The notes: generated by a model from the sequence alone, not told the origin. Positions 1 to 49,816 are shown, numbered from the stretch's first letter. The stretch: 64,000 bases of DNA from PVC group bacterium (ex Bugula neritina AB1) (GCA_001730085.1 MDLB01000104.1:3117-67116), one strand, 5' to 3'. Numbers and translations: made by a program.

Positions 1-1098
1 CCTTGCCGATAAGTCTCATAGCTTCTTGAAAACCTTGCCAACTCACTCTGCTCTCTTTTTCAATGTGTTTGAATTTTTTTAAAGCACGAGCATATTCACG
101 TGTACTTGTATCCGTAGCATTTTCAATAATCTTATGCATGTCACAAGCTATTTCAAAATTCTTTTCGATTTTTTGTAGCAAAGTATCCAAGAAGAATGCG
201 CTCAAATGAAACTCTTTGATTTTTTCTAAAAATTCTGCACCTATCCGTTGAACCAAAACTTCAAAATGCTCTTTATCTTTTAAAGTCGTCGCTTTTTTTA
301 ACTTTGTACGATAAAGAGATATCCGTCTATATAAAGAATTAGCTTCTTTCAATTTTTTTTTAAAATAATCAGGAAATTTGTTCAAATCTTTAGGAGAGAC
401 TCTTTTAAAGTAATCCTCAATTTCAATCTCTTTTTTTTCGATAGGTTCTTCAAGAGCATTAAGATCTTTCAAAGAATAGCCTAAAACAAAAACACTACTT
501 TTTAAGGCAATTTCAGCATTTTCAATATTTGTTGAAAGAGCAATCTCTTCTTCGTGAGTCAAAAGATCAATTTCTCCCATTTCACGCAAATACATTTTCA
601 CAGAGTCCATAGATACAGGAGGTAAAATATCTTCCTTCTTTTTAGCCGATGACTTTGTCTTATTGGAATTTATTAATGTATCTGCTTCTTCAACTGAATC
701 AACATAACGAACACCCTTCTCGCTAAGTTTTGTAAAAATTTGATCAAACTCTTCAACATCTACCTTAAAGTTTTCAAGAAAGTCATTCACTTCTCCATAG
801 GTGATAACTCCTCTTTCTTTACCCATTTTTATAATAGCTTCAATAATCGCCTTGCCTTCCTGAGAGTCAAGAGATCTTAAGTGTGACTGATCTTGAGAAG
901 AAGGCTCTTCATGTAAACTCTCTTCCTCATAGGTTTCTTCCAATGATTTTTCTATATCTTCCTGTGAGGGCATTTTATTGAATTCTTTTGAATCATCCAT
1001 GTCATTAAAGTCATCTGAAGATGCTACCTTCGCAACTTTTTTAGGGAAAAAAGGTTCTCCCATCGCCTCTTTGTTTCCATATTTTTTTCGATGCCACA
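1..1098 (-). CDS. rpoD: RNA polymerase sigma-70 factor RpoD, N-terminal ~366 codons. The 3' end runs off the left edge of the window.
   Basis: My reverse-complement translation from ATG at 1098 reads MWHRKKYGN...DSVKMYLREMGEIDLLTHEEEIALSTNIENAE. This matches sigma-70 region 1.2 (consensus D-x-V-R-M-Y-L-R-E-M-G-x-V-x-L-L-T-R-E-x-E-I). It is preceded by an acidic region 1.1-like stretch. The gene sits 2 bp after the dnaG stop, the canonical dnaG-rpoD pairing. It is not in the ORF track because the frame stays open past position 1. Confidence 0.75.
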
Positions 1099-1100
1099 TT

Positions 1101-2924: not shown

Positions 2925-2951
2925 AGAAATAAATGATTTTCCTCTATGAGG

Positions 2952-3521
2952 TTAGAAATGCCTCATAGGAGGATTTTGAACACGGTTAGCCATATCATTG
3001 AAGTACTTTCTAAGGATCAAAACTCTACGACCCCTCCAAGAACCTGCCATATAATCAAAGAACCTTGGCATCTGAAGAACCATCCAAGAAGCCAAAAATG
3101 TACGATACTTAATATGAGCAGATAATTTCGGAGATTCAAGAGTCCCCAATAAAGCTAAAAACATAAAAACCACAATCATACCTTTTAAAAAACCAACACA
3201 AAGACCTCCATAACGCTCTAAGCGATCATAAAAGTTTGTTGACTCACCATACTTTTGTGTTGCAAGTTTAACCCCTTGAACAAGCACATACGTGAAAATA
3301 AGAATCACAAAAAAGGAAAAAAGCTTCAGAAAAAAATAAGGTAACCTAACAAAAGTCGCGATTTCTGAAGATAACACGTGTGTGAACTTAAAGGCAAAAA
3401 AAAGTGCTGCCACCACACTTAAAAAACGAAAAACTTCTCCAGTTAAACCTTCTTTCCATCCCCAATAAATCGTACAGAAAAGGATAAAAAGTATAAAACC
3501 ATCAAGCCAATGTATCGCCAC
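2952..3521 (-). CDS. CvpA-family (colicin V production-like) small integral membrane protein
   Basis: 189 aa with 4-5 hydrophobic helices. N-terminal LDGFILFILFCTIYWGWKEGLTGEVFRFLSVVAALFFAFKF is the typical CvpA-like pattern. Assignment is from a general family resemblance only. Confidence 0.45.
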   Translation of the reverse strand: MAIHWLDGFILFILFCTIYWGWKEGLTGEVFRFLSVVAALFFAFKFTHVLSSEIATFVRLPYFFLKLFSFFVILIFTYVLVQGVKLATQKYGESTNFYDRLERYGGLCVGFLKGMIVVFMFLALLGTLESPKLSAHIKYRTFLASWMVLQMPRFFDYMAGSWRGRRVLILRKYFNDMANRVQNPPMRHF

Positions 3522-3595
3522 TGATTTTTTCCTCTTAAGATTCTTTCTTTACCTTTATAGATTCTCAAATAAACACCAAAAGAAAAACTATCTAA

Positions 3596-6500
3596 TTAAG
3601 CAGCTCTTGAATAGATATCTTTATATTCTCCCATACGATCATGCTTAATCCTCACTATTCTTTCCGTGAATATTAAGATCTGACTCACAGAAGGAGTCGT
3701 CTCGGTCACATCTATAGAGGTGTCTCTCTTTAAAGGATATTCCTGCTTATAATTTTGATGTAACTGAACAAGATGTTTATAGTAGAGAACTAGAGAAGCA
3801 TCTTTAAAGCTCTCCCAATCTGTCATGTTTTCAAAGAAATCCTCCGTCGAAAACAAAGAGAAATAACCTAAGTAAGCCAAATCAATCTTATTCATGTAAA
3901 ATTGGTCAAATAAACTTGTATTTGCATTATAAATAGTAGTAACTTTTTCAAGTAGTTTTTGAAAAAAAGATTCAGATTTAATATCTACACCTTCGCTTAT
4001 TGCCTTTTGCGCAAATTTTAAAAATTGGGTTGCAAAAACGTATCCGGCTTGTGTTTCATTTTCTATACTCAATTGAGTATATTTGAAATATTCGTCAATA
4101 TTTTCAGTTTTTTCTAGTTCAGTATAAGGTGATTGCAAAACATAGTCTTTATGTTTACCTTTAAAACGATTAAAAAGAGTAGCAGACTCTACTTGTCCAG
4201 GAGCAGAAGTCCCACCTGACGATTCTTCCACAAAGTCTTTATCAAAACAGTGTGTAAAGATATCTAATTCTAAAACATTCAAAAGCTCCTTTAGGTGATA
4301 GCCTTCAAATCTCACTTCATCTCCCTTTAAACAATTATCTAGCTCTAAGATTTTTTCCTCTTTCTCGTCTAAAAGTTTTTCAAAATCCTCTATTTTCTTT
4401 TCTATAACATTTTTCAAGCGTAACTGATTAGCATTTCTGAGCTCTGAACCTTCTCCTTCAACATACTCCATTTCTTCAAAAATCTTAGTCATATTAAGAT
4501 CTGACGCAAATAAAGACGTAAAAAGTGTTTTCATAGAGGCATAGTTTTTCTTTATATCCTCAATCAAACTATCTTTCTCACCAGCAGGAATATCAGGTGT
4601 CTCAACTTTCCCAATCAGTTGACGATACTCATCTAAGGACTGGACCAAAGTCTGTGCCTGATCTCTATAAAGCAAAGCACTCTGTCTTCTTTTTAGAACT
4701 TCGGGACGTTCCTTTGCATATATTTCTGATAACAACTTAAATAGAGTAATGGAAAAAGCATCTTCGCCTTCACTCGTAGATTTTTTTATTTTGTCTCCAA
4801 GAGCTAATAAAATCGTCCTCCAATCCTTATAGGTGCGGATTTCTATGTACCTCTGATCCCACTTTTCGTGTTGCTCTAAAGACTTACCTTCTTCTCTGGA
4901 GTCACTTAAAGCCTTTCTTAACTCTGTTGACAAATCTGTTTTCAAAGGGATGAATGGATTATCAACTCCAAATGGCCTATTAGCTATAACTGTGCTTAGT
5001 TCTTTAGTGTCTAACAAGATCCTCACACTATTATCATCTTCTTTTCCTGCACCTTGATATTGCTCAAAAAGTTTTTGAAGTTCTGCCATTCCGCCCATCT
5101 TCCCCATGTCAGGTAATCCAGATTTTCCCTCGGAAAAACGTTCTCTAACTTTTAGCCAAGATTGCCCAACAAAGAAAGACATTGGATTAATACGAAAATC
5201 AGGATTGTCCTCGAATTTTGGATTGATTTGGGGATCTTTCCCAAGAGATTTAAAAGATGTTAAACCTGAAGAACGATAAAATTCAGAAAAAAGAGTTTTT
5301 GACCATTCATATTTTTTTTCAGATGCTCTTTTTTCTCCAAGCTTTTCGATAAAATGTTTATTTAAAAAAGACTTTAACTTATAAAGACGACGCCCTGTCA
5401 CAAAGTTAAAAACCCGACGAAAAAACTTCGGCTTTTTCAAAGTATCTTCAAAAAGGGAATGACCTTTTTGAACCATTTCAGGATGTTCCAATAAGGTCTC
5501 CTGTAAAATTTTATCAAAAAGTTGATTAAATTCATTTTCTTTATCAGTTAAGTCAGCAGGATCTTTATAAGATTTATTTTCAATAAGTTTTTTCAATAAA
5601 TCTTTTAAACTTTTGTCATCCAAAGATCCATTTGTTTTTTGGAGCTTTTGAAAAAAGTACTTTTTAAGTAAAGGCTCATTTTTCAAAAAGTCTATCCCTT
5701 TTAAGGTTTTAGAGGCTGCTTCAAGAATCAAGAAATCATTAAAAGAATTGATCCCATGTTCATCGCAAACGCGGGAAGCGTCTTGAAAACCTGATCTTAT
5801 CGTAAGAAAGAACTCTTCGTCATATTTCTTTAAAAATGTATTCAAATCTTCATCTTTCAATCCAGCCTCTTTAGCTAAGGTAAGTGCCTTTTTATAAGAT
5901 GAAAAACACTGTTCACGAAATAAGGTCATCAATTTCAATTGTCTACGCTGTTTGTAGTCTCTTCGGATAGAGCTTTCTTTTTTGAATAACTTCAAAAATC
6001 TAGACTCACGTGGACTAAAGTCTTCTAAAGTTTGCCCAACTTCTTGAGCATTTAAAGAAGCGATCTGTTTCACTCTGTCTTCGGATAGATTATATAATTT
6101 GCCTTGAAAGTCTGCATTTTCATTAAGCGAATGATTATATCCTCCTACTCTTAAAAAATCGTCTTTGCCAGAAAAGTATTCAGAAAGAGTTAAGTAGGCC
6201 AAAGCATTATTATTAAAAAGTGGAGAGTTTTTAACAAGAACAATCTCAGTCGTCTTAGGAGTACCCTTAGAGGCAAGATAATCAACTTTTAAAGTCAGCT
6301 GTGTCACTTCTTTACCTTCGTAGGAAGCAACTTCAACTTTATTTATCTCAACACCATAAATAAAATAAACCTGGTCCACACCATCGGCATTTATTTCGCG
6401 CAATGCTCTATTAAAAGGCATATCAACTTGTACCGTAGACTCTCTAACATATTTGTTAAAATTTTCCAAGTCGTCGTTAAATTGATAAGTCGCAACATCA

Positions 6501-9500
6501 TTGCCTTTAACAACTTTATCTTCTGAGTATTCCAAAGATTCCAAAGAAAGAAACAGAAGTGACCTTAACCAGTCATACTGATCAACAGTCATCCAAGAAT
6601 CTTTCTTTTCATACCAGTGAGAACCCGTTGACTGATACCACTTGAACAAATTCGCACCATTCAAGGTTTTAGGGCCCCTAGCACCAGGCCTTTTCGAAAT
6701 ACCAAATTCTTTGATAACTCTTTTTAAAGCTTCCTTCTTTTTGTCCTCTAAAGAAAGTTTCTCTCCCAAGAAATCAGCAGTATACATCAAATACCAAGCA
6801 CAAGTTTTTTTATTCGCTTTCAAAACTCGTTCAAACTCTTGTTCACTCGTAAGAGAAGACCATTCATCAAAAACCGGTTCTTTAAGTCTACGATTAGCCC
6901 AATAATAATAAGCTTTCTTAAAAAAACCTTTTTTTAGACCCTCTACACGCTTAGCTTGTGCATTTTTAGCTTTATCTAGAGCCTTCTTATAATAAGATGA
7001 TTTCATGATCACATCCCGCGCACTATCCTTAGCCTCCTTAACTAGAGTAGCATCTAAAGATTTGTCTACTGTTCCCAAGTTTTCTTGAAGAGTTTTGCTC
7101 ATAGCCTTCTCAGTAAGAATAGATCTAGTGATTTCTCCTGAATAGGTTTTCTGATTTGTTTTGATCAACAAGTCATTAACTCCTAAACCTTCAATAACTT
7201 TAACAACATCTTTAATGGTAAAAGCTTCTAGCAAACTACCGGCCGAAGAAGCCTTTGCTTCTGAAACAGATCTAGAAAGTTTCAAGTCTCCATCAAGACC
7301 TTCTCGGTGTAGCCTAAAAATCTCCGCCATCTCCGCTTTTAGTCTATTGTAATTAGTATTAGAAGGCAATGCATTAACTGCACCCCAAGGATGCTGATTC
7401 TCTGTAGACAAAGTACTTGCTAACTTAGATTTTACAGTCTCACCTTGCAAAGCATCCAAAAGTTTAATAAAACTCTTTTTGGCGTCTGCAAACATCTCTT
7501 CTAAAACTTTTTGAGTACTCTTCGTATTAAGGGTAACATTTTGTACCGCTTTAGCTTTTTCATTTTGAACATTGATCAAATTTTGCTTACAATTTTTAAA
7601 AGCACTTGCCAACTCTTCTGTAAGATTTCTATAGGGTTTCAACAATTTTATCAATGACTGTATAAGTTGCCTATGAGGGGCATAAAAAGCTTCAGTAGCA
7701 ACATGAAAGTTTTGAGCTCTTTCGGCAGTAATATCATTTTGATTTATCATATGAAAAAACTTCGAAATATTTATTCTTAAGGCGTTTTGATCACCTTCAA
7801 ATAATTCAGAACTTTTAACTTTTCCATCTTTTTCATAATAAAACTTTCCATCCCACGCATCTTTCTTAAAAAACCAAAGCTCTCTGTCTGAATGAAATTT
7901 TACAGTTATTCTCTGACCCTGTTCTTCCAACGTAACTCTTAATCCCCGATCTCTACCAAGACCTTGTTGAACCTCAGACTTTCTCGCTTTATTATCACAT
8001 AAAAATAAAACTTTTTGTCGAAACTTACCTAGTCCAGACATCTCCAAGTTTGTCCCTGTAGCACCTGCCGGAAATAAATACACCGCACCTATATTCAAAC
8101 CACGTGCATTCTCAGTGAAACCGGTGGTATCTCTCATGTTAAAAATACATCCATCTTTATCTTTTAGCAGATTCCCCTTATTAAGCAATAAACCGTCTGG
8201 AACTTTTGATTTTCCACTATCTAACAAGCTCTTCGCCATATCTTGATCAATCAAGCGCGAAACAGAAAAATTAACTTGCTTTGTCGCATTATCTACCCAA
8301 GAGTGATAATCTTCCTTTAAAAACAAACGCCAGTCACCCACAAGATCTTTAACAATAACATCTTGTCCTTTTTCCCCCATCACATTTAATAAAGTTATAA
8401 GATTAGACATATCTGTGGAAATCGTATAATCAACAACCAAAAGATGACCGTTAGGTCCATTTTTATCAATAGTCATCTTTTCCACAACAGCTTTAATTTT
8501 CGTGTTAAGAGCCGCCTCTAATGCTTGGTCAATCTGAATATAATTTTCTTTTCCGCGTTCGCCTACAAGAGAATAGTCTTTACCTAAAACATCCAAAAGG
8601 ACTTTAGCAGCAATTTCTCCACCCTCTAACCTTAATTGAACAACACGTGAAGCTAAATCTAGTTTTTCAGCAGAAGATAAACTTTTACTCTTTATATAAG
8701 AAGCCTCTCTCTTGATAACTGTTAAAAGATTTTCTAGTTTTTCAATTTCAGGATAAATATAACTCTTAACAAGTTCAATATTCTCCAACCCACGAGTATC
8801 ACGATGACTCAAAGCTTTTTCTATAAAAAGTTTAGTAAAGGCTTTTAATTCTGAATTTTGCGCGCAATTGGTATCTAGAAATTTCTGAATATTTTTACCG
8901 CCTGACAAGAAAAATTGAACAATATTTTCTTTCATACTGATGATATATTCAACTTTTTTAGCTGTCATCTGTATACTTTTATCCATTTTTAACATTTCTC
9001 TCAAGGCATTTTCTATCGTTTCTTTATAAGCATGAGAAACCTTATTCTTATTCTCTACACCTTGAATAAAAGCTTCTTTCACACTTGTTTTTTCATTAAA
9101 TACCTTCATTTCACTAGAATGTAATCTTGTCAAAGGAGCTTCTGTATATTTAGCAAAAACATTACCATCTATTAAAATATCAGGTTGAGAAGTTTCCCAC
9201 GTGGAAACACCAAACTGACGTAATAAAGCAACGGAAACTTGTGTAAGAGATCCTGAAAACCCCATAAAGCTCCCACCAGCTTCTTTAATCGCTAAGAGTT
9301 GTTGAGGAATAGAAGTCGAATAGGACTCGGGTTGCAACTTGATTTGACTAGCATCATTTATAATTATTTTTGCATACTCTTTAGGATCTCTATAACCTCC
9401 TTTAGGGATTGTTGATGACAAAGTCACAAGGGCTAAACTCAAGACATGCTCAGACTCGGTGAACCTCTGATCAGGCTGTTTTTCACCACCTGTCATAGGA

Positions 9501-12500
9501 ACAATTTTCATAACTCCACTGGTATCACGAGTGATAAAACCTTTTGAATCAACTTCAAGAAAATAGGCTTGGTTCTGACCAAATCTATTTTGTAACTCTT
9601 TATTAGATGTCAATCCTCCCAAAGCTTGAGCAAACCTATCTAAAAAACGAAAAACAAACTGAGGTGGAGAATAAGGATCCTTCTTACCTTCATCATAAAT
9701 ACTTTTCATACGATTAAATAACTCTGCCTCTGAATATTTCACCTGACCATCATTACTTTTCTCACCATAGGTTTTCAAAACTTCTGATGCTTTCTTACTA
9801 AGAGCATAATCTTTTAAGCCTAATGAAACACCCCAATACTTATCATTCGTTAATCTTTTTAAAAGTTTACATTTCAACTCAGCTGAAAAAGTTACGTCTC
9901 CACCTTGACCAATATCTGATCTTTTAAAACGCAAAGCTCCTGTGCCTAACTCCTCACCTTCTTTCAAAAGGAATTTTTCCACCTTTTGAGTTAGTTTCTT
10001 GCCGTCAAATATTTTTGCGTCCGCCATCCCTTGCACCTTCATCTCGCTTTCGATAAGTTTATAAAGCTCTTGGGTTACATAATACGCAAGAGCAGCATTA
10101 GTTTTCCCAATAGAAACCTCCTGTCCGTCAGTCCCTGTCACAAAGCTTTTAGGATTAAGATATTTATGAACTTCATCAACAACCCTAGTCCCTGAAAGTA
10201 GCTCATTTAAAACTTTAATAGAATCACGACTTTCGGGCTTATGAGGGTTATCCGCATTCAATTTAAGAAAGTTCATTGCATCCGTCGCCGTAAAAACAAC
10301 TCTCGCTTTCATCAATTTTTCAACTTCGGCGGGACCTCCCAAATTAGCATTTCTCAATTGAGCTGTCCAGTCTTTACTCGTGTTTGATCCAAACTCTGAG
10401 TTCAAAATATATCTAAATTGAACATTATCCATTTCAGATATTTTTCCTTCTTCGGGAACCTCTATAACAACCTTATGAGAGTTTCTCCAATAGCCATTTG
10501 AACCTAATAGAAACATCACTACCGCAGGATTCACAGCTGTCGTTTTACCACCACCAGTTGGAATTTGTGCCGCTAAAAAGTCTTTCATCAACAAAGCAAT
10601 TATACCTTCCAACTGAATAGGTAAGAAGTTGAATTCCCTATTATTGAAGAGTTTCATATGTTTCGCAAAAGTCTCCAATTGACGTGTAAACATAAGAAAA
10701 ATAGCTGTAGAATGTGCTATCTTAGCAAGAGACTCTTTATTAAAAGAAGCAGACTTGAATGAAGGACTCTGAGTGTAACTTTTAAGAAGAACGTCTATAA
10801 GTTTGGGCATATCAATCATCCCTTTTTCACCTTGAATTAAAAAGGTCTCATTAAACTTCTGCCACTTAGAATCATAGTCATATGTTTTATCAAAGCAAGT
10901 CTTTTGTCTAGAATAACCGACCTTCTCAGTCATAATATTCTCCATTTGTCTAACGATATCAGACTGTTGCTGTAGAGATAGATTAGAAAGACCTTGCTCC
11001 TTTGCGATTTTACTAATCAGTTCTCCATAATTCAAAAACATAGCAGAATGGCCTGAAGCCGTTTTAGCAAGAATTTGAAATAATGGATCTCCAGCTTGGC
11101 CAAGTTGAAAAGAATCAAATCTAAACGCATTATAAACTTCACTAACTCTTAAAATATTTATTTTTAGCTCTGAAAAAACCTCTTTTAGTTTAGTTTCAAA
11201 CAAGCTTAAACCTTCAATATTTATCCTTAAGTGCGTTATTCCTTGATTCGAAGATTTTGAGAATCCAAAATTATGGTGGACCAATCTATCTATAATCAAC
11301 TCTGCTAAGCCTTTCAAGTTATCTTTAGATAAAGTTGCAAGAAATCCTCCCCTAAGCGATTCTTTTTCCAAGATACTTGTAATATTTTTTTTCAAAAGAT
11401 CATAAGTAAAAGTTCCAGAAGTTATATCAAAACTATCGGGAAGTTGTGCCAAATGATGTGCTTGTTGACCTGCAAAAATATCCATGGCAGCATCTCTAGC
11501 TTTGTTGAACTCAGCATTTTTTTGAAATTCTGACCATTTTTCATGATGTAAAAATTTTTCGTTCAACAACAATTTAGACATTTGAGAAGATTTGGAAGAA
11601 CCATCACCTCTAGAAGTATCTGTTAAGTTTAAATTGCTATGAAGAGAGAGGATCTCTGGCGGTAAAGATTCCTGACCCTCCTTTTGTTTGCCTTTATAAC
11701 TGTCTATAGCTTTACCCAATGAATCTTTAAAGCTTTCTGTTCCAGTCACATGTTTCAAAAGAACAACTTCTAGTTCACCTTCTCCAAAAAAAGTACTCAA
11801 ATCTTTCAAAACTTTTACATTTCTAAAAATAGCCATAAAAACAGCAACTTGTTGCTCTATTTTTAAGCTTTGAAAGTCAGAATATCCCAATTTTTTAGCC
11901 ATAGAGTTCAAAGCACTTTCATCAAGAGCAACTTTTCTAGCAAAGAAAGATCTTTTCGGTATCGGCCGAAAGGAAGCCTTCACTCTTTCTAAAAAGTCAG
12001 CCCGAGCAGTTTGATCTCCACTCAAAACCTCCGATATCCTCTTCAAGTTAGCTAATGTATCTCCATTTAATTGATCTAAGGTCTCTGATAGTTCACCATC
12101 CGAACTGTAACCACCATAGAGAGTTTTATATACTCTTAACTTAGGAATAAATGATTCTGCGAAAAGAAAATAGCCTTTACCTACAAAACTTTCTGCAACA
12201 AAGGATGGATCTGAAACGTTTTGAGCCTTTGCTATGTCATAATAACGTAACATAACCGCAAGACCAACCGTATTTTGAACCAAATTTTCAAGAATTAACT
12301 TAGCTTGTCCATGCTCCCAGTCTTCAGTTTGCTTTGCTTGATGAAGTTTTTGCAAACGATTATAGACTCTCTTTATCTCTACGTCTAAAGTAGAAGCTTT
12401 CGTACTTGAATCCTTAGCTCCAGGTTTAGAATCAAAATCCTTTATAGATGTTTTAAAAGCATCGAAACCTTGTTCTCTTAATAAGACAATATCTTTAAAA

Positions 12501-15500
12501 ACCTTGATTAACATTTCCTGTTGATTAACCGCTTTACCCTCAAAAACCTTATCTTTAAACATGAATTCAGCCAAAGTGGTGAGATATTGAGAAGGCTTTT
12601 CTTCTAAACGAGAGCGAAAAGACTCTGCAACTTTTGTTCCTAGTTGCGATTTCAAAAAGGACTCATAATGCCATCTCTTTAACATCATAGATAAAGAGAA
12701 AGACTCATCTTTTCCTTTGCCAAAAAGTTTTTTCAAAGGTTGAGTCATCTTCTCCATTAAGCTACCAAGCAAATGCTGCATACGCCCCTTCTTCTTCCCC
12801 TGAAATTGATTACTATCGCTTTCTTCCCAAATCCAGCTTCTATATTTATTCTTCCAATAGCGCAAAGTTATGATCCTTCTTCTAAAAGGCATCGCATTCA
12901 AGTTAAGTTGGATCTGCTCTTTGCTAGGGCGCAAGTTATTCCAGAAAAAATCGGTAACTTTATTTGTGTTTCCAGGCTCCAGAAGATACATCTTAGAATT
13001 GTCAAAGTTACTGCTCCTACTTTGTGCTTTAATAAAGATTTGTTGAACATCATCAATCCTACTTATCAGTTTATGGTCTGCCGCATTCTCTCTCAAAAAC
13101 TTAATCAGTTCACTAGGTGTCCTAACCTTTAATTTCCCATTCTCATCCATTTTAACACCCGAAAATTGACCTTTAGCTAACTTTTGTCCAAAAGAGCCCT
13201 TGTAAACTTTTTGATAAGTCGCAATACCTTTGCCCGAAGAAAACCTAACTATACCAGAGTTAATATCTAAGCCATTGTGCTTGCGCTCATAAGATGACCT
13301 ATATAGGAGATCTCCAAAAACATCCATCAATCTATCCCATTGATTAAACATAGTTATCAGGAACTGAACAAAACTCAATCTAGGCCTTTGCGGAGAAGAA
13401 GAGGACTTAGCATCCGATTTTAAAGTTTGTTTCGAGCCTGAATCAAACTTTTTTTCGAAAGAATTAGATCTATCAACCATTTTACCTCTTAAATATCCTG
13501 TGAGTCTCATCCTTAACCCACCAATACCCTGAAGAATCGTTCTATTAACAAAACCATAAATCTTCATAGGCATCGAAGCCAATGAATACACCGTACCCAA
13601 GAAAATCTTAGATATAAAAAATAATGCCTTATAAAGATGTAAAGTGACCGTCGTAAAGCCTAACTCCGCAAGTTCCTTATGCATATGCTTTTCTAAAGCT
13701 TTTGCCAACATATTCACCTGACGGACTTGGGCTCTATCAAGCACTTTAACTTTCTTGATCTCTTTTAAGGTTTTTTTCTGTCTTTGCAATGACTTAAGAT
13801 GCTTATCAGCATATTCAAACTTCTTTTTTAGACCCTGTTTCGCTTGCCTAAAAGTCCTCATAAAAAGCAAGCCAAAAATTCCTCCAACTACACGAGCGAC
13901 TTGATGGTACTTCTCTGTAAAAAGATTGCTTTTATTAAGTTCTCTCTTAACTCTTACATTTTGCTTTTGATCATCTGTATAAATGAACGAAGCATCTACG
14001 GAAGCAAAAACTAAAGGTAAAGCAAACATTGTCCCAACAACGCCTCCAATCAAAAGCATAAGAAATGAAATAACCAACATCCCTAAAAAAACAGCAATAG
14101 CTCCGCCTTTTGCACCTTCGGTCCAATCTGATATCGTATCAACAAAAGTGTCGTATATCCAACCTTCAGGCAAACCTAAAAGACCTTCCATAAAACCAAC
14201 ATATATTAAGGAAAAACCTTTAAGAGATTCCCACATATCGTACATGCTTCTCAAAGCTGTTGCAGCTAATCCCAATAAGCCGAAAAAGAAACTTGGAAAC
14301 TCCACAAAAATAACCGTAATAAAAAATGCTGAATACTTAGAAGCAAGAGATCTCTGTCTATCTTTCTCTTCCTGTGTATCTGCAAGAAAATTTGCTGATA
14401 TACTATGAATAATAATCCTAGTCGCAGAATAAAGCATCCCAACTGCCAAAACCGAAAGAAGCAAGGGGAGAACAGCCCCTCCAAGGGTTAAAGCCATCAC
14501 AGCAAAAAATATACCTCCTAAAAGGTGTAAAAAGGACATCGCCAACTGAAGTCCTACTGTTTTAAACTTATCCTGCCAACCGATGGAGATTGATTGTATA
14601 TCCTCATCTAAAGCATTACGTAAAAGTTCAGCACGATCAGAGTTATCTTCTATCTGATCTGATGCACTATTACTCGTCATTTCTTTTTTGCCTGTAAAAA
14701 GATTAGAAAGAGCTCCAATAGCTGTACCAACAACATTTGTACCAGTTTCTTCGATTAAAATATAAAAACTGATAGCAAAAGCCTCCACCCCTTTGGAAAA
14801 GTCAACATCATTTCGACCTAAGGAATCATAAGCCTGGAGATAGACTTGTTCATTTTGTTGATCGATATTAGCTATAAAGCGTTTTTCTCCGTGATTCAAA
14901 CTCACGATATCAGTCACATTTTCTCCCATTTCGTAAAAGAGCGTGACTTTGGCAAAATCAAAACTGTAATAAGTATAAGTAGCAAGCATATAGCCATAAG
15001 CATTATATGTGTTAAAGTTTTGCTCAAAATCATAAACAAGTGTAGTCTTTTGTCCGTTTTCATCTTTCTTACCTTTTTGCTCTCGGCCCCTTTTCTTTAG
15101 CACAGCTCTCTCTGAATAAATAGCTTGACCTTGTGAATCATATAGGTGATTTCCAGAAGAAAACTCTGAACCTGGATCTTCCGGACCACTTGTTTCTTCT
15201 CGAAAACTTTTCACTTGACCCTTTTTTCGTTGCAATCGTACGGAGATATCCTTTTCCTCCAACTGATAGCGAAAGGACCCTCCGTCAAAGTTGATTATGA
15301 AATCTTTAATAAAAACAACCTCTTCACCATCTTCTGACCAATACTGTATGCGACCTTCTTTACTATCTCCATCATCAATCCAATGCTTTCTAGATCTTTC
15401 AGATTGAGCGTAAGAATGAATTTTTCCTAAAATTCCTCTTGAACGTAAGTTCTCTGCTTCAAAATTATCACTACGATTATAAGTTTTCTCGTCATAAGCT

Positions 15501-18500
15501 TTTTCCAAACCTATCTGATGAGTTACAGATTCGACATATTCCTTATACATATCTTCATATAGTTCAGCAACGTCGGTCTCTGGATCAAACTTTTTAGGGA
15601 CATAGTAAGAAATATTATCTCGTACTGTTTTTGTCTCTGCTCCAGAAGCAGAAATAGCATACTCCGTATAACCTTTAGCTTGACCGTAAGTTGCATCTTC
15701 AGAAGTTTCCGTATAAAAATCGCTATCAACACGACGGACTAAAGAAAAGTCAAATTTATCTTGCATATCCCCGGTAAAAGACCAATGGTTCAAACGAACC
15801 TCTCTCTCTTCGCCTTCAAGAGAACGTAAGCCCGTTTCAATCCCATCATCAATCTCAGGATCTCTAAAGAAATGTAAAGAAAAACCTTTCACATATGAAG
15901 GCAAACCTTCATCAAGTGAAGGAGAAAAAGGTTCCACATCAAAGTTATCTATCCCAGCAGAAAGATCTCCAAAAAGATTAGATGTTTGTATTCCCTCCCA
16001 AGAGTCTACTTGACTCAAGGAAATACGGGTAAACTGTAGATCTTCATTTTTAACTTTGTCCCGACCATTGTAAAGAACATATATATTATCATTGTGAGAT
16101 TGTGTATTTTTTAAGTGAGGGTTATCCAAATGCCTTTCAACTTCACCAATATTCAAAATTCTCTTAGCTTTATTATCACTAAGATTAAAATGATCCTCTA
16201 AACCTGATGAAATTTGTCCAGCAAACGAAAGATCATAGCTATATTTGTTCACAGCTTTATTAAAAACATAATCATAGATACCATCTTCCGCTTTGTCCAA
16301 ATAAAATGAACCAGATTTTTTCCAAGTATTATTTATGTATCCATAATTTTCACCCCGATCACTAAAAATAACCCTCGAATCTATATATGTGCTTCCTAAC
16401 AAATCTTCCTCTTTAGTCAACCCAAAAAGATTCTGCAAGTAATCTTCATCAAAAAAGTACAACTCAGCTTGTTCAACTTCTGATCGAGATTTATTAACTT
16501 CTTTTCCGAAAGAGGTAAAGTCAAAAGGGTCTTCTTCTTTAGTCATTTTTTCTTCTAAGTTTTTCCAGTTTTCGTCAAGAATATCCACGGTAAGATCATA
16601 TGTTCGAGAAGAAGCCTCTTGCCCCAAACGGTATGTTCTGTCTTTCTTTATAACATGTCTTTCGGTATCATTTAAATGATCAAGAATAACTTCGTAACTA
16701 TTGATCAGTTTATCCGTATAAAATTCAGAAGCTACTCTCTTCGTCAATGTATCTTCCAAAATAATCGCGGGCTCAACAGTCGATGTAACTTTTTTAGACT
16801 GAGAAAAAGTCAGAACATTATCTAAACCATCAAATAAAACATCTTTCATGATTTCAAGAGTATTTCTTTGTCTCAAGTCATCTTTTTTTGCTGTTTTATT
16901 AAAAACGATCCGACCTTTTTCATCATAAGATCTGTCGTTTGTAATACTCTCCTGAATTACCAAGTACTCATCTTCTTTGGTATTTCCTATTCCATATTTA
17001 GCTCTATCCATTTTTTCTTTAGTAACAAGGTCTCTGTCATACGCAAGTACTTCTCTCTTAACTTCTTCACGAGACAAAAGACTTTTATTCCCTAAAGATT
17101 CAAAAGATCCAACATCATAATTTTTAATAGATACCTCTTCATTTTTCAAAAGACCCTTATTGTTTCCTGTCTTAAAGTGATCTCTACGAACTTCTCTTGA
17201 TAAGTAGTTTCTTAAAACCCAAAAAGAGGAATCTTCTAAACCTTCTATCCCATTTCTAATATTCACATATTCACGTTCTTCTTCCTCAAAGGTCACTTCA
17301 TTATCATAAACATCAAAAGAAGCATTCAATCTATTGACCATACGTTTAAGATAGTCTTCACCTTTGCTATCTTTTAAAGTCTCAGTAAGAATATACCCCT
17401 TGGATCTACCACGAAAATCTGTGGAATAAACATGTTTTTCTGTCTCTCTAACAGAAACAGTTTGACCATTTATCGTTTCATAAAGAACCTCTGAATAAAA
17501 CTCCTCAAATCCCTTATTTTCAGAAAAAGAAGTCGCCAAACGCTTTGTTTCCAAAACTCTTTGAGGTTTTGATTCATCATGTTGAAAAGATGTATAAGAG
17601 ATCCCACGTCCTTGATGATCCCAAGAGTGGATTTGTTTTTTGACATTCATAACGGACTTCTGTTTTGAAAGATTTTTATCCATCAAATCCGAAATATCTT
17701 TAGCGACAACCATGTTCAAAAGGTTATCTCTATCAAGAAGGTTTAAAACATCAACTTTTGTACTTCTAATATCAACATTAGAAATATAACCACCCTTAAA
17801 GTCATTGTCTTTCAAAATCAAAGAAACACGATCTGTTGAAGAATTCCAGTTTGTTTCTATTTCTTGAGTTGGATTTTCACGATACCCCTCATATGTCAAA
17901 AAACGCTTCTGAATTCTATAGGGATCAGGGGTTTCAGGAGTGAAAGAAACTTTCTCAAAACGTTCAAGTCTTTTACGCGAATCATAAAAATATTTTTCAA
18001 CTTCTGTGTCCAATAGTTTTCCGTATTCACTCATATTTTCAGAGTTGATCGTTTCTAGATTTTCTAAGAATGATGATACTTGAGATATATCATAGTTTTT
18101 ACGAACTTTTTTTATCAATTTAGATGCTGAATTATACAGCATAGAAAAATCACTACAGTTAGTTTCTACAGAAGCCAAACCCTTTTCAACGTCAAGATCC
18201 GCAATATAGTTTTCTGTAACAACCTTGTACGATATAAGATCACCGTTTAAGTTATAAACATGTCCAACCTCACGTTCAATTGAACGAGGAATATCACTAA
18301 CGTCAGCCAAAACATTGGCAGATCGATAAGTCAAAGACTCTTTGCCATTCAAACGCCCTTTTTCATTATAAGAAAAAGACGACTGAATAACCTGTCTTAA
18401 AAAATTATCTTGTGTATTTTTTTCAGAAGAAGCTCTTGTCGAAATGAGCTCATTCTTGCTCAAAACTCGGTCAAAAGCACGATCATAAACAATATCTGAA

Positions 18501-21500
18501 GTTTCCCGATGAAGTTGAACTTGATATGGAGAAAACTTGTTATAGAAAATATCCTGTTGACGATAAGATATAAGCTTAGGGTCTAAAAAATATTGATCTT
18601 TTTTGCTTAAACGATTCAAAGCATCATACTCATTATGAACAATCTCATTCCTAAAAAGATTTTGATCCGAATCATACGACTTACGATTTTCTACAACAGC
18701 TAAAGTATCTCCAACAGTGTTGCCGCTATAGCTCCGACCTATCATCAAACCTCTAACCTGCTTATTATTCGCATATGACAAAGATTCTTCAAGAGTTTTT
18801 CGATCTAAATTATCATACTCAAAATACTTATTATCGGTAACAACAAAGTCAGATTTTGCTATATCTTTTAAAACCTCAGCAGAAGGTAAAGAAATAAAAC
18901 CTTCCTTGTCTGTTTTTATACCTTCAAAAAGATACTTAAAAGATTTAACTTGATACCTTTCTTCTAAAAGACGCCTTTGAAGATCTCCTAAACCTTCAAC
19001 GGTGCCATTTTCCATTAATCTTATATTTCCACCACCTTTTCTATCATAACGAAAATCTTTAACATACTCATATCCGTTTTTAAAAGTTGTGGAGAGAACC
19101 TCTCCAGATGGTGAGGACGATAAAGCAAGCTCATATTCAAGACGATAGTCATTAGCATCATCTTTTTTATAAACAGAAAGAGTTTTGCTTTCCTCAGACA
19201 AAGCTCCCCCTTGAAAAATTTTCCTTAAAGTTTTAATGGGACGACTATATTTATCATATTGATAATATTCTTCAGAAACTCGACCTTTATCATTGTCTTC
19301 AAAAGTCAATTTAGATCCTCTAGCGTACTCCGTAGAAACTTTTTTAGATACTTGTTTATCCAAGTTATACTCATAATTAACTTTTACAGTAAGACCAGGA
19401 ACTTCTTCAAAGTTTTCCTGATCATAACCATAAGTGGTGATCGTTTCCTCTTCAAGCAAACCACTCTGTGTAAAAGTTCTAAAAACTCTCTCACCACGCA
19501 TTTGAGAAAAGTTACCGCCTGTCACATCAAAAAGGGTTTTCTTTGAATATGTCACACGTCCCTCTTCATCAAAACGATAATTATGCGTTTTCTCTATTTG
19601 AGCAGATGTTCGACGTCCTGTCACATCATAATAGGCTACCTTCTTTTCACTCAAGACAACATTTCCCTGAATATCACTTGTAAAAAGATGGGTGATAACT
19701 TTATAAAGGTCACCTTTTTCATTGAAAAATTCTTCACGACTACCTTCTCTTTTATCTTCGGAAAGAAATTTAGAAAGAACCGTCTTCGATTGATCATTGA
19801 CGGACAAGTCCCCTACATTTTCTTCAGGTACTTTGGAAGTCTTCCGAAAATCTACAGATAACTGTTTCCCTCTAGCATCATAGGTAAACTTTCTCGTTTC
19901 TCTATTTTGAAAGTTCAAATTTTCCAAGAAAGAACCTTCTTGAAGAAGTGAACTGAACTCTCCAGAAATGATTTTATCTTCAATAGTCTTATAATAGTCA
20001 GGGTCTAAAAATGATCTTTTTTCCATAACAACCCTATCCATTCTATCGTATAGAAAATCGTAACGTGTTGTACGAGAATATTCTCCCCCTTTATTAATAT
20101 TAGTCACAAAGCGACTTGCAACACGTCCTATAGCATCATATTTCATTTGAACATTAGAGCCTACTTCAAAGTCCCAACGTAAAAATTCTTCATTCCATAC
20201 ATAGTCTTTTCTCTCTTGAGCAATAACTCGATTAGTGTCAAAAGACTTGTTCATATTATCCTCATAGTAATAAACCAAGTCTGTTTTTCTTCTAACATCA
20301 GAGTTTTCATCGTAAAAAAAGTCTCTCGAACGAACAACTTTTCCAGTGACATCATAAGAAGAGATGCGGTAACCTGTTTCCTTCTTTTCTAAATAGCTCG
20401 AATATTTAAAGTTCACATCATAACTACGTGACTTTAAAAGTTCTTTTGTTAACCTAAAAGCTTCTCCAAGGATATGTATCGCAAAAGCAAGCAAGTCGCG
20501 AACCGTTTGAAAAACATCCGATGGATTCAAAAAAAGATTGATAAAGATATTCCTAATACTTTCAATAAGAGTAGGATTAGAGTCATTCAAAGCATAACGT
20601 TCTTGCCACCAAGAAACATACGTATCAATGATCGATGTCTTAACATTTTCAAGATCATCAGATTTAGATTCAAAGTCAGCATCGTTTAACTTATTAGCAA
20701 TCTCTATTTGACCAGTATCTGCAACGTTATATTCGTATTTCTCTATTTTTTGAGAAAGAATTTGACCTCTATGTCCATATTGATAGTCATCATACCTCTC
20801 CTCGCTTTTCAGAAAAAGTCTTGTCTCACCTTCTTTCAACAAATCAAGACTACCTATGCCTGCTTTAGATTTACCCTCAACATAAGCATAGTGCTTTTTT
20901 GAAGAAGAGCGAACATTGTCAAAAAGATTATAGGCAATATCCTCTTCATCACGAGAAATCAAAAGCGATGAACGAGCATCTTCAGAAAAAGCTTTTTTTA
21001 TAGAAACCTTTTTAGAAATAAGACCCTTGTCAAAATCATAAAAGTCTTCAAGCACTTCCTCTTTCAAAAGCCCTTGTAGCTTCTGTACACTAAATCTTTC
21101 ATATTTCTCATACATACGTATACGTGTTTGAGCAATTTTTCCATTAGAGTGATACGTATAACTAATAGAGTTGTAGAGAGATTGATTCATATCGGAACCA
21201 TCTTTTTTTAATGGCGTTTTGAAAAAAATACGATTTTTTACTAAACCATCTTTTCTATACGTGATATCAAGTGTCTGTTCTCGCAAATTATTCAATCTAT
21301 TTAAAGAGTCAACTGTCCTCCGAACACCATTTTGATCATACCCATATATCTTAACCTCATCTCTAGTCACGTTGAAGAAATTATTCTTAGCAATATCTTT
21401 AGATATATCTAGATTTTTTGAACGTACTTCATTCAAGTCCCATAAAGGATTTTTGCCATCAAATAAATCGCCTTGACCATTCAAAGAGTATCCTTTAAAG

Positions 21501-24500
21501 GTTTCTTTTTTAGGCCTATTAGAAGAGTGATCATACCCTTCAATCTCAACAGTACTAATAGTGGAAATATTAAAAATATCTATCGTTAAAAAAGATTTCA
21601 ATATTTTTTCAATACTAAAAAGATTTCCAGTTTTTCCTAAAAGCTGATCAACAACATTTTGAGCAGTTTGCTCAAGAGCACCCGCTTGAACCACAAGAGA
21701 AACAAATTTTGAGCGAAAAGCATTCGATTTATTTTTAAATTCTTCAGAAAAAAATGAACTCAACTCATCTGTCTCTGTTTTCAAATCTAGCAAGTACTCT
21801 TTAAAGTTAGAAATCTCTAGCCCAATTTCTTGCCAAGCATCATTTATCAATCCTATCTGCTGTCTTAAGGAGTCAAGACCATATACAGCTTTTTCATTCC
21901 TAAAAATGACTTCTTTTTGCTTATCTCCATCTTCTGTATAAAATGTCTGTGAATATTGACTATCTTTATAAACAAAGTCAGAAGGATCATTCTTCGAAAC
22001 ATTTTCAGATGAACTATATTTAAATAGGTCTTTTTGAACGAAAACTCTCTGAAAGTTTTTATTATAAGAAAAACTTTGTGTGGACAATTCTATATCATAA
22101 TACTGATTGCCACTTGAGTCAGGATCTGTACCTTCATGAGAAACTTTTCTTAATGTCCAAAGTCCATCTTTTGCTCTAATGTAGCGATATTTAATTTCCG
22201 TTGATCCCAAGATATAGTTTGTTTCAACTTTTCTATTTTCTACAATATTTCCTAAATGGTCCAAAATATCAATATTTGTTTCAAGATATCCTTCGGATGC
22301 ATTCCATTGGATCTTTTTCAATTCCGAAACAGTTTCTCCGTCAGAATCATAAACAAAAACATCTGTTTCAACCGACTCACGATTATTTTTATCATTATAT
22401 GTATACCTAGAAAGAGTTAATTGAAGACGGCCTTGACTATCATAAGAAAATTCAGTAGAAACCAGCAAGTTACCTCTTTCATCAAAAATAGGAGAAGAAA
22501 GATCCTCTTCTGTATAAAAACCATACGATAGGATTTTTTCTATCATATCTGAAGAAAGTCCAGCTTCCCATTTAGAGTCTAAAGAATAGACACCATTATC
22601 GATACGATCCTCATTCTTAGAAATCATTCGACCTGCAATATCATATTTCATATCCCATGTATAACTTATATTTACATTAGCATCTCTATCTTCCGTGCGC
22701 GTATTTTGAGATAAAAGACGCCCCATTCCATCATATGTCATACCCCAAACAGTTTTTTTCTCTATGTTGTCAAAGGTTTTGTTTATCTCCTTATAAGAGG
22801 AAACCTGACCAAGCTTATTATAATGTATATTTCTTCTCTCCAAAAAGCTTGTCACACCATTGACAATTCTTTTTTCAAAAAATGAATCAACTTGACCATG
22901 TGTGTTATATGTATTCGTTCTCTCAGTAATAAAGTTAGAAACAACATTACCACCAGCATATTTATATTCAACATCTTTATAAGAAGTCACTCTCCCTAAT
23001 TGATCATAATCTGTATTAATCCTAGAGGTCTCTTGTGTAATCTCTGGGGTAGAAAAATCACGAATGGTGTCTGTATAACTGATCGATCTACCAAGATTGT
23101 CAAAAATAACATTATCACGAATTGTCTCAATCTGAACAGATTCTGAATCAATGCCAAAGCGTGTCAAAAGCTCTCTATAGGAAGATACCTTTCCTATATT
23201 TTTATCATAAGATAATGCTTCCCACGATGTATGCAAAACCATGTCTTTAGCATCTGAACTCGTTGATATATTCTCATAACTTTTTCTACGACCCAACGCG
23301 TCATAAAGAACATTCTGATAAGAGCTTCTACGCGATCTAGAAAAAATGTTACTATCTTTTGTCGATGCTAAACTACTTTCAACTATTGTTTCAGTGTAAG
23401 CCTCTCTACGACCCAAAATATCATATTTTATATTTTCTAATATAACCTTTTCTAAAAGATCAAGAGATTTCAAACTTCTACTTGCGTCTGTATATCCAAC
23501 AATTCTTCCTAGTTTGTCATATTTAGCACCTAGGCGAACCGTCCACTTACTATTAGATGGATCTGAAGAGTTCCACTCGTGATCACGATAACCCACAACT
23601 TGCCCAATCGCATTATAAGTAATACCAAGGCGTTGCGTTCTTGTTCTAATATCTAAAAGAATACGTCCATCTTTCAATAAAAAGCGACGACCTTCACCTT
23701 TATAAGTTTTCTCTTGCCCTAAACTATTATAAAAAGTAGCATGCCTAACATCCGTTTTGGTTTCTTCTGAATCATCTGTTTTAGAGACCTCTACATAAGA
23801 AAACACCCTGTTTTTATCATACGTGATATCCATTCTTCTAACGCTTGATGTCTCTTTTAAAAGAGGTTCATCTTTCAAATCTTCATTTTTCAAAGGTGTT
23901 TCTTTTTTCTCAAAAACATCAAAGTATTCAACAACCTGACCAACTGTGTTATATCTTATATCACTTCTAGTCTGTTCAGTTGTAAGCCCTGTATTCAAAT
24001 CAAGAGTTTTTTCAACAAAAGATTGCAGCTGACCATCCCCGTTATAAAGCATATTCTTACGGTCAACTTTTTTAAGATCAACAAAGCTAATCAATAAATC
24101 ACCCTTCAAATCTTCTAAAGAAATATCAAGACCATTAAGAGAAAGAGATCCACCTTCGTAAATTTTTTGAATTTGAGTAACCGTTAGGTCCTCCCACTTC
24201 GTAACGCCAGTTCCCATTCGCCCTAGTTTAGAATAGTCCACTTGATTTTTTTCAATAAAACTTCCTTCTCGACGTATTTCCTCACTATAACTTTCAACAA
24301 AACCTTTAGCATCATAAACAGTTGATAATCTTGTAGTCTTCGACCTTTTTTTTAATAAAGGTTCATATTTATAATCAATAAATGTTATCAATTGACCTTT
24401 TTTATTATAAGAAATAGCTTCTCTAGAAGTATTCTCTATCTCATTTTTTTCAAAAAGTATATTCTTTTCAACTTTTCTTAAGAAGCGAATTTTTTCTAAA

Positions 24501-38235: not shown

Positions 38236-38377
38236 TTTTTTCTCCTTTTTCTAGCCGAAGAGACTTTCAAGATATTAAGACTATTGTAAAATACATCATG
38301 AACTCTCTTGAGGCTTTTAAAAAAATATAATCTTTCTTTAATCGTTTGATTTTTTGTAAACACTTATAAAATCCTTG

Positions 38378-40521: not shown

Positions 40522-40543
40522 CTCCTAAATATAATTCTTTTAG

Positions 40544-43472: not shown

Positions 43473-43489
43473 GACTTGACCTTAAAATA

Positions 43490-48507: not shown

Positions 48508-48555
48508 AAATTCTTGAATCCTTATGAAATCTTGATTAGAAAGCTAAATTTTGAA

Positions 48556-49164: not shown

Positions 49165-49166
49165 GA

Positions 49167-49799: not shown

Positions 49800-49816
49800 A
49801 AAATAAACTCCTCAAT

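Follow-up and report, generated by a model that had tools for sequence, protein, structure and literature searches.

The window, by which we mean the whole 64,000-nucleotide (nt) stretch of DNA analyzed here from PVC group bacterium (ex Bugula neritina AB1) (GCA_001730085.1, MDLB01000104.1:3117-67116), contains on its minus strand an open reading frame (ORF) for a giant protein of 9,666 amino acids (aa). We found that a single, conserved cluster of hydrophobic segments at aa 6016-6345 divides this protein into an acidic part rich in YD repeats, preceded by a signal-peptide-like N terminus, and a mildly basic part bearing the motifs of a superfamily 2 (SF2) ATPase. What the analysis shows directly is that the cluster exists, that it is conserved and the only one within the protein, that YD repeats are enriched, that ATPase motifs are present, and that the gene is syntenic; Sec export, an orientation with the N terminus outside and the C terminus inside (N-out/C-in), the number of helices, and a coupling between the two parts are what we infer. 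The most parsimonious reading, which we hold with moderate confidence, is that the YD part is exported, the cluster acts as a polytopic anchor, and the ATPase part lies in the cytoplasm, N-out/C-in. The source genome bin, AB1_div, has been described as divergent and affiliated with candidate division NPL-UPA2 of the PVC superphylum (PMC5041132), and a text search of the describing paper returned no mention of the giant protein.

An earlier note on this DNA, made from the sequence by itself, had placed at positions 13500-14700 a bundle of at least five hydrophobic segments of about 20 residues, spread over some 350 aa, with parts of about 6,000 and 3,400 aa on either side. Residue i of the giant protein begins at nucleotide 32596-3(i-1), and this interval corresponds to aa ~5966-6365. 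The claim held on every one of these points, given that the interval contains the sole internal hydrophobic cluster of the giant ORF, with ~6,015 aa ahead of the cluster and ~3,320 aa behind it. The strings quoted in that note (RIIIHS, KRELNK, and RTFRQAKQGLKKK) are located at aa 6060-6259, and the segments are those that we term A to F (Table 1), A and D being of hairpin length. On the Kyte-Doolittle scale, 19-residue peaks above 1.5 occurred in only two places in the whole protein, aa 12-34 and aa 6029-6342. As a second scale we used the apparent free energy of membrane insertion summed over 19 residues, with the values of Hessa 2005, and 69 spans fell below 4 kcal/mol: 64 within aa 5990-6360 and 5 within the signal-like segment at the N terminus. 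None of the remaining 9,238 spans was below 6.3 kcal/mol. Shuffles of the whole protein gave a mean of 4.9 spans below 4 kcal/mol compared to the 69 observed, and shuffles of the region by itself gave a mean of 2.9 spans below 2 kcal/mol compared to 45, with 0/1000 reaching the observed number. The hydrophobic cluster is real, well beyond chance, and conserved. Its segments reached Kyte-Doolittle values of 2.0-2.75 and free energies down to -3.5 kcal/mol (-4.3 for the best 17-mer), which, as far as a heuristic scale can tell, supports the hydrophobicity of genuine transmembrane (TM) helices.

An exhaustive phmmer search with aa 5901-6800 against 1.84 billion representative sequences returned exactly one match, MBU0650578.1 (hereafter P0001; E = 7e-32), which covers aa 6027-6315 at 30% identity. 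P0001 is a fragment, cut by the end of a 3.9-kb contig of the metagenome-assembled genome (MAG) GCA_018814215.1, and YD-like sequence precedes it. In the pairwise alignment of the two proteins (A1), all hydrophobic stretches are in register, and the best-conserved positions are polar: E6099, GF(M/I)E...GLPEGWIYD, F(I/M)xTDDxK, LFTE, ARxVG, and K6323. Among these, GF(M/I)E...GLPEGWIYD, at the end of Segment C, is the best-conserved motif, and F(I/M)xTDDxK follows Segment D. Positions E110 and F111 of the alignment (Segment B) and K334 (Segment F) are invariant. Other searches for relatives were negative within their scope: word-indexed searches with aa 5950-6450 and aa 7250-8249 gave no match, a search type that also missed P0001; scans of genome collections found no relative by the TM region or by DnaG; metagenomes scanned with alignments A1 and A2 (two scans) yielded none either; and the TM profile matched nothing in the PDB. 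As judged by these searches, the membrane domain forms an orphan family, with P0001 as the only homologue detected. Pfam CitMHS matched the TM region at 18.9 bits (cut-off 31.9), a match that we set aside as compositional.

The individual segments differ in how firmly they can be called. Five helices (A1, A2, B, D1, and D2) were classed as TM in both the giant protein, with free energies from -4.3 to +3.0 kcal/mol, and P0001; C and E were inconsistent, and F was moderate in both. Segment A, which in P0001 appears as two separate minima (-3.8 and -2.0 kcal/mol), is probably a two-helix hairpin (A1/A2), and so probably is Segment D (D1/D2). The TM status of Segment C is uncertain, Segment E is classed differently in the giant protein and in P0001, and Segment F could be either a TM helix or an interfacial helix. 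A switch in charge and composition falls exactly at the cluster, with the net charge of aa 6001-6900 summing to +46. AlphaFold, run on the TM region with a two-sequence alignment, returned an all-helical model with no beta structure at low confidence (predicted local distance difference test [pLDDT] of 44), which is weak evidence against buried beta-strands; the basic stretch at aa 6247-6322 was the best-scoring part of this model, helical with pLDDT 62-73. Taken as a polytopic alpha-helical domain of the inner membrane, the cluster would comprise five strong helices (A1/A2, B, and D1/D2) and possibly seven.

A second relative was recognized by synteny. In this organism, a gene of 9,735 or 9,745 aa lies upstream of cvpA-dnaG-rpoD, and the comparison covers the last 3,089 aa of its product, which are collinear with the window protein at 31-35% identity. 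In one SRA assembly the gene (L004 and L005; gene at 1-9271) lies on contig SRR12008134_6775 and encodes 9,735 aa, and in another it encodes 9,745; because the 3,089-aa C-terminal parts are >99% identical, the difference reflects strain-level length variation further upstream. We also observed a metalloprotease-like HEVAH (HExxH) near its C terminus, at aa ~2952 of the 3,089-aa fragment (L004:~8855-8869). The lineage is probably diderm, given that the genome of the relative encodes LptE. The DnaG of the window is identical to the DNA primase of PVC group bacterium (ex Bugula neritina AB1); the nearest other DnaG is 50% identical and comes from an organism of 44% guanine-plus-cytosine (GC) content, that of the syntenic relative; the P0001 contig has 33.5% GC, and the family therefore spans at least three lineages.

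Fusion of two or more genes into one ORF by an assembly or annotation artefact is an alternative that we regard as extremely unlikely. The homologue in GCA_018814215.1 is indeed broken by stop codons upstream of P0001. The window gene, on the other hand, runs for 29 kb without interruption, is identical over its 9,666 aa in the NCBI record and two Logan assemblies, has an even GC content throughout, and is matched by genes of 9,735 and 9,745 aa in the same position in relatives. As for the MAG itself, the region upstream of P0001 (L001:1-780) also encodes YD-like repeats, which stop codons separate from P0001, such that this homologue is either frameshifted, misassembled, or decaying there.

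The first 35 residues of the giant protein look like a Sec signal peptide by our heuristic, with a hydrophobic run of 15-20 residues as h-region followed by SFA|Q. Every 300-aa block of the N-terminal part has a net charge between -29 and +2, and the part is rich in Tyr and Asp and internally repetitive by self-BLAST. Repeat cores of the YDxxGR type number 47 compared to 5 expected from shuffles, whereas the C-terminal part has 3 compared to 2 expected. NCBIfam TIGR01643 matched the giant protein at 22.9 bits (cut-off 15.8), and Pfam RHS_repeat reached 14.1 bits, under its cut-off of 22. A sequence search of the PDB with the N-terminal part gave no match. We consider aa ~120-5900 a putative exported ectodomain.

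The C-terminal part contains no TM-like span: none was below 6.3 kcal/mol in aa 6346-9666, and the minimum for the C-terminal 3,089 aa of the relative was 6.6 kcal/mol. General Pfam, NCBIfam, and PDB sequence scans of this part gave no match. Strings that we assigned by eye to the named SF2 motifs follow one another in canonical order (Table 1), motifs II and III being separated by an insertion of ~300 aa. In the relative, motifs I, II, III, V, and VI recur unchanged and in this order, and the motor blocks are the most conserved portion of the C-terminal part (48-51% identity, compared to 31-35% overall). A search for a canonical Walker A ([AG]x4GK[ST]) found none, the P-loop reading IPTGGGKT. 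Pfam DEAD (PF00270) scored 17.2 bits in the giant protein and 23.1 in the relative, both under the cut-off of 26, and Helicase_C was not matched. A two-sequence profile of the ATPase gave only a weak PDB match, over the DEAD-box Q/motif I region (E = 0.098), and a single-sequence AlphaFold model of aa 7300-7830 had a pLDDT of 33. At the level of motifs, the ATPase that the earlier note had assigned to this part was thus borne out, the full SF2 motif set being invariant in the relative, and the sequence supports an SF2/DEAD-like ATPase motor.

We considered whether this motor is a SecA. The resemblance seen by eye (the TGxGKT context, "FTATDAMNFL" compared to "YGTNNEFGFDYL", and GFSGS compared to GMTGTA) received no statistical support, and we do not assign the motor to SecA: the profile of alignment A2 scored -4.4 bits by hmmsearch against Escherichia coli SecA (NC_000913.3), below many shuffled decoys; hhalign aligned only 33 columns, around the P-loop; and no Pfam SecA model, SecA_DEAD included, was listed at E <= 10 for the giant protein or the relative. 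What the motor shares with SecA and other SF2 (DEAD/DExH) ATPases is the order of the Q-like, I, II, III, V, and VI motifs and the large insertion between II and III, the place where SecA carries its preprotein-binding domain. It differs from SecA in that its profile does no better on the E. coli protein than on shuffled versions of it and in that the Pfam DEAD match is sub-threshold.

Together, these features suggest how the giant protein could be laid out in the envelope. The N-terminal signal peptide would send the acidic YD-repeat part of ~5,900 aa through the Sec channel until the first strongly hydrophobic segment stopped the transfer, after which the membrane domain would integrate. In a chain exported by Sec, segments whose apparent free energy is below 0 should leave through the lateral gate of SecY into the producer's membrane. 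The Lys/Arg-rich stretch would stay in the cytoplasm, where ATP is, together with the ~3,300 aa that follow and carry the SF2 motor. The product would be one very long polypeptide anchored in the cytoplasmic membrane of the producer and could form an envelope-spanning device, in which a surface or periplasmic YD structure is physically coupled to a cytoplasmic ATPase via a conserved membrane domain. The placement of the two parts on opposite sides follows from the two end signals (the signal peptide on one side and the basic stretch with the ATPase on the other) rather than from counting helices, and a cytoplasmic C-terminal part is favored because an ATPase points to an ATP-containing compartment. 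The earlier note had also put the two parts on opposite sides, with the C-terminal part cytoplasmic if the helix number is odd; the TM-grade segments, the signal-like N terminus, the YD enrichment, and the ATPase motifs agree with opposite sides, but the argument from helix count and parity found no support in Lys/Arg counts.

These counts were obtained by a home-made enumeration of topologies, constrained to N-out, with Lys and Arg (K/R) counted within flanks of 15-20 residues (20 for the values given here). The 5-helix model (A1, A2, B, D1, and D2) puts the C terminus inside with K/R out:in ratios of 7:7 in the giant protein and 6:5 in P0001. Four variants with seven helices also put it inside, with 14-16 K/R out and 3-11 in for the giant protein and 14-17 out and 2-11 in for P0001. 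The 6-helix model, made of three hairpins, returns the C terminus to the side of the N terminus at 12:1 in the giant protein and 10:0 in P0001. A dynamic-programming model in which K/R were summed over entire loops gave in/in with 4-6 helices every time and was dropped as biased by the long flanks.

Several points weigh against the N-out/C-in layout. The 5-helix model lacks a positive-inside bias, the 7-helix variants put more K/R outside than inside, and the cleanest asymmetry belongs to the six-helix, three-hairpin model with both ends on the same side. With A and D each counted as a hairpin, the parity is set by the number of membrane-spanning segments among B, C, E, and F, and our enumerations give either parity depending on C, E, and F; if Segment F spanned the membrane on top of the five strong helices, the C-terminal part would lie outside. 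Both the signal peptide and the topology were judged by home-made heuristics, both AlphaFold models are poor (pLDDT 44 and 33) and provide no usable fold evidence, and the ATPase is identified from motifs and sub-threshold hidden Markov model (HMM) scores. The comparison with the syntenic relative covered its C-terminal 3,089 aa. Finally, export of ~5,900 aa has to account for an outer membrane as well, given that the lineage appears to be diderm.

The main rival is an anchor that leaves the two large parts on one side of the membrane, with A, B plus C, and D forming three re-entrant hairpins inserted from a single face. In one version, everything is cytoplasmic and the hydrophobic segment at the N terminus is not a working export signal; in the other, everything is outside after the signal peptide. 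The six-helix model has by far the cleanest Lys/Arg asymmetry and keeps both flanks on the K/R-rich side, and A and D are uncharged stretches of 40-54 residues with turns of 1-10 residues. Long uncharged hairpins of this kind are reminiscent of reticulons or of the bilobed hairpin domains found in chlamydial Inc proteins. The N terminus, however, has a regular n/h/c signal layout, and Segment C has low hydrophobicity (5.5 and 6.2 kcal/mol) and did not qualify as TM in P0001. The all-inside version ignores both the signal peptide and the sharp switch from acidic to basic at the cluster, whereas the all-outside version would leave a conserved ATPase where there is no ATP and 20 K/R in 76 aa outside. 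We consider a same-side anchor unlikely.

Within the N-out/C-in layout, the membrane domain is probably more than a passive anchor, given that it has conserved polar motifs of its own (E6099, GLPEGWIYD, and TDDxK). A stronger version of this idea is that it is the transmission or conducting element of an envelope-spanning machine made of a single polypeptide, in which the SF2 (SecA-like) motor would drive export of its own ~0.65 MDa YD ectodomain, in trans between copies, or would actuate the ectodomain mechanically. The idea is prompted by the intramembrane Glu in Segment B, by the Lys that is conserved in Segment F, and by the motifs GLPEGWIYD and TDDxK, and we regard it as speculative and rather unlikely. 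If true, the product would be a surface structure like that of teneurins but turned the other way round, driven from the inside and inherited vertically in a deep, uncultured lineage related to the PVC group.

The YD repeats raise the possibility that the protein is a secreted toxin with a latent membrane-insertion or translocation domain, whose hairpins would enter a host or prey membrane and deliver the ATPase part to the target cytosol, as modelled on large clostridial toxins, MARTX toxins, colicins, and the TM domains of type VI secretion system (T6SS) Rhs effectors. YD/Rhs repeats are typical of toxin-delivery proteins, the organism lives with an animal host, and the segments are organized like hairpins with charges that disobey the positive-inside rule under N-out. 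Repeats of the YDxxGR type are shared with the bacterial Rhs/YD toxins TcB-TcC, WapA, and the T6SS prePAAR Rhs effectors, and hydrophobic helical hairpins clustered in a very large protein recall the bilobed domains of chlamydial Inc proteins and the translocation regions of clostridial and MARTX toxins. TM helices are present in some T6SS Rhs effectors as well (PMC7773334). In prePAAR effectors, however, the TM helices are N-terminal and not central, and the repeat region of the window protein is ~5-8 times the size of one Rhs cocoon. We found no PAAR motif and no DPxG/DPxGL Rhs aspartyl-autoprotease motif anywhere in the giant protein, no polymorphic C-terminal toxin with an immunity gene in the protein or its locus, and no toxin/immunity module or secretion-system genes in the 64 kb. 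Homology to clostridial, MARTX, or Inc proteins, a toxin domain, or a secretion-system context was likewise not found for the window protein. Those proteins exit the producer without a Sec signal peptide and act on host membranes, whereas, from what is understood of Sec biology, segments of down to -4.3 kcal/mol behind such a peptide should be trapped in the producer's own membrane.

The conservation and setting of the gene bear on the same question. The C-terminal part of 3,300 aa is not polymorphic but collinear and conserved across deep lineages, and the gene holds a stable position in the core genome that is syntenic in a distant relative. Its neighbors in the window are trkH/trkA on one side and cvpA/dnaG on the other, within housekeeping surroundings (trkAH, bat/moxR, nqr, dnaG, recA, and dcw genes). 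Given this setting, and the position kept in a relative whose DnaG is only 50% identical, the locus fits a vertically inherited component of the cell envelope better than a mobile toxin cassette, and we judge the toxin explanation quite improbable.

Another explanation is that a polyprotein is cleaved after synthesis, such that the TM cluster ends up in a smaller product and the split across the membrane describes only the precursor. The giant proteins of Omnitrophota have been suggested to undergo proteolytic processing (10.1101/2023.11.21.568195), and the relative carries the metalloprotease-like HEVAH motif described above. In the window protein, by contrast, we found no peptidase domain, no HExxH motif, and no Rhs autoprotease motif, and cleavage would leave the initial membrane insertion unchanged, making it compatible with the N-out/C-in layout. 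We consider such cleavage very unlikely.

The layout itself is not without precedent. Giant proteins of Omnitrophota encode TM regions, most carry divergent SecA DEAD domains, and Rhs-like beta-helical tubes have been described in them (West-Roberts et al. 2023, 10.1101/2023.11.21.568195); 39% of 916 long Omnitrophota proteins fall in a class with a signal peptide plus TM segments (10.64898/2026.06.07.730766). An exported giant domain, a TM anchor, and an ATPase is a layout already described for Omnitrophota/PVC giants, and the window protein is a variation of it. Like the "Dockerin-type" and signal-peptide-plus-TM giants, it has a long, TM-free N-terminal part predicted to be extracellular, a dockerin-type Ca loop, and Rhs-like beta structures, followed by TM anchors near the C-terminal third and a divergent SecA/DEAD-type ATPase predicted to be intracellular, and its host organism is likewise in the PVC group. 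It thus matches the published series of signal peptide, long extracytoplasmic part, TM anchors, and DEAD/SecA-like ATPase, with the signal peptide and topology assigned by heuristics. It differs from the Omnitrophota giants in that Pfam SecA_DEAD is unmatched, the likeness being one of architecture as set beside published descriptions; in its ectodomain of degenerate YD repeats; in its size (9.7 thousand amino acids [kaa] compared to 30-147 kaa); in lying among housekeeping genes rather than beside type II secretion or pilus genes; and in its orphan TM domain and host-associated organism.

Eukaryotic teneurins offer a second comparison. If our favored topology is correct, both would be anchored in the membrane with a large YD part facing outward and the other end in the cytoplasm. 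Teneurins, however, are type II proteins with a cytoplasmic N terminus, one TM helix, and a C-terminal YD shell, while the order in the window protein is reversed: signal peptide, YD part, 5-7 helices, and an ATPase-bearing tail of 3,300 aa. No homology to teneurins beyond the repeat motif was detectable. The earlier note had presented this topology as the reverse of that of teneurins and as unlike soluble Rhs toxins, which is descriptively right on both counts, but the layout as such has its precedent in Omnitrophota.

If the topology is right, the window protein, at 9.7 kaa, shows in compact form the layout of an exported giant domain, a membrane anchor, and a cytoplasmic ATPase, and its source in an animal-associated member of the PVC group, its YD ectodomain, and at least two diverged relatives would make it a more tractable case. 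It would bear on how megadalton polypeptides thread into or across the cytoplasmic membrane and on the role of fused DEAD/SecA-like motors, and would supply a bacterial membrane-anchored YD protein to place beside teneurins. The conserved charged residues of the orphan membrane domain are direct targets for mutagenesis, and the significance would be higher if this domain turns out to couple the motor functionally to the ectodomain or to act as a conducting element between them.

Table 1. Features of the giant protein and its surroundings. Nucleotide positions are those of the window and residues those of the giant protein; free energies of insertion are in kcal/mol.
Feature	Residues (aa)	Nucleotides	Strand	Remarks
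Giant ORF	9,666 aa	3596..32596	(-)	ORF call, two Logan assemblies, and syntenic relative
Sec-type signal-peptide-like N terminus	1-35	32492..32596	(-)	n-region K8, K9, K15; h-region LICFFTLQIFLFTSV; c-region DLSFA|QS
Acidic YD-repeat part (Rhs-like, degenerate)	~120-5900	14897..32239	(-)	Self-BLAST, repeat cores, TIGR01643
Dockerin-type Ca-binding loop	1292-1309	28670..28723	(-)	Pfam Dockerin_1, 27.1 bits (gathering cut-off 22.9), E = 4.7e-6
Hydrophobic (TM) cluster	6016-6345	13562..14551	(-)	Kyte-Doolittle and insertion free energy; conserved in P0001
Segment A	6016-6060	14417..14551	(-)	44 uncharged residues with TLGG turn midway; free energy -0.4 and +0.6
Segment B	6089-6113	14258..14332	(-)	Strong helix with conserved internal Glu E6099; free energy 1.85 (P0001, 1.24)
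Segment C	6125-6147	14156..14224	(-)	Weakly hydrophobic; free energy 5.5 (P0001, 6.2); runs into GLPEGWIYD
Segment D	6164-6208	13973..14107	(-)	Hairpin length; free energy -4.3 and +3.0 (P0001, -2.7 and -0.9)
Segment E	6233-6249	13850..13900	(-)	Short, ARxVG..., 14 hydrophobic residues between Arg; free energy 4.3 (P0001, 1.6)
Basic juxtamembrane stretch	6247-6322	13631..13858	(-)	20 K/R and 7 D/E in 76 aa; helix-prone; equally basic in P0001
Segment F	6323-6345	13562..13630	(-)	Moderately hydrophobic; conserved Lys K6323 inside, both flanks basic; free energy 2.4 (P0001, 2.5)
C-terminal part	6346-9666	3599..13561	(-)	No TM segment; K/L/A-rich, mildly basic; putatively cytoplasmic
SF2 (DEAD/SecA-like) ATPase motor, candidate	~7320-8225	7922..10639	(-)	Q-like and motifs I, II, III, V, and VI in canonical order
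Q-like motif	7324			FLPIQLE
Motif I	7346			PTGGGKT (P-loop IPTGGGKT)
Motif II	7474			DEVH (VVDEVH, 7472-7477)
Motif III-like	7779			GFSGS
Motif V-like	8177			AGATGT
Motif VI	8210			QQGLGRDRG
Promoter-like site		32663..32692	(-)	TTGACT-18-TATAAT; 11/12 consensus matches, upstream of the ATG at 32596; consensus match only
cvpA (Colicin_V family inner-membrane protein)		2952..3521	(-)	74 nt downstream of the giant gene; syntenic in relative
Complete Bat/MoxR-type operon		36352-44473	(-)	MoxR AAA_3, DUF58, DUF4381-like, two VWA/BatA-like, TPR genes, BatD; just upstream of trkA-trkH and the giant gene
nqrA-F operon		47278-53044		In the window

Besides the promoter-like site, the giant gene has an AGGA 10 nt before its ATG. 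Because the order of the giant gene and cvpA is kept in the relative and no terminator-like site was found in the 74-nt gap between them, the two genes may be co-transcribed or functionally linked; the order giant gene-cvpA-dnaG-rpoD recurs in the relative, with cvpA at L004:9271-9815. Between the moxR operon and a peroxiredoxin gene lies an ORF of 497 aa (44691-46184, minus strand) with a weak match to a six-bladed beta-propeller family (DUF5128, 26.4 bits). Another ORF, of 462 aa (56829-58217, minus strand), has no Pfam match at E <= 1 and directly follows murB-ddl-ftsQ, the usual place of ftsA/ftsZ; according to the paper describing the AB1_div genome bin, FtsZ was not found in it (PMC5041132). 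The window also has a strand bias that is unusually strong over 64 kb, with every ORF of 150 aa or more (29 in all) lying on the minus strand, and its GC skew is negative in each 2-kb block from 1 to 64000, ranging from -0.16 to -0.34.

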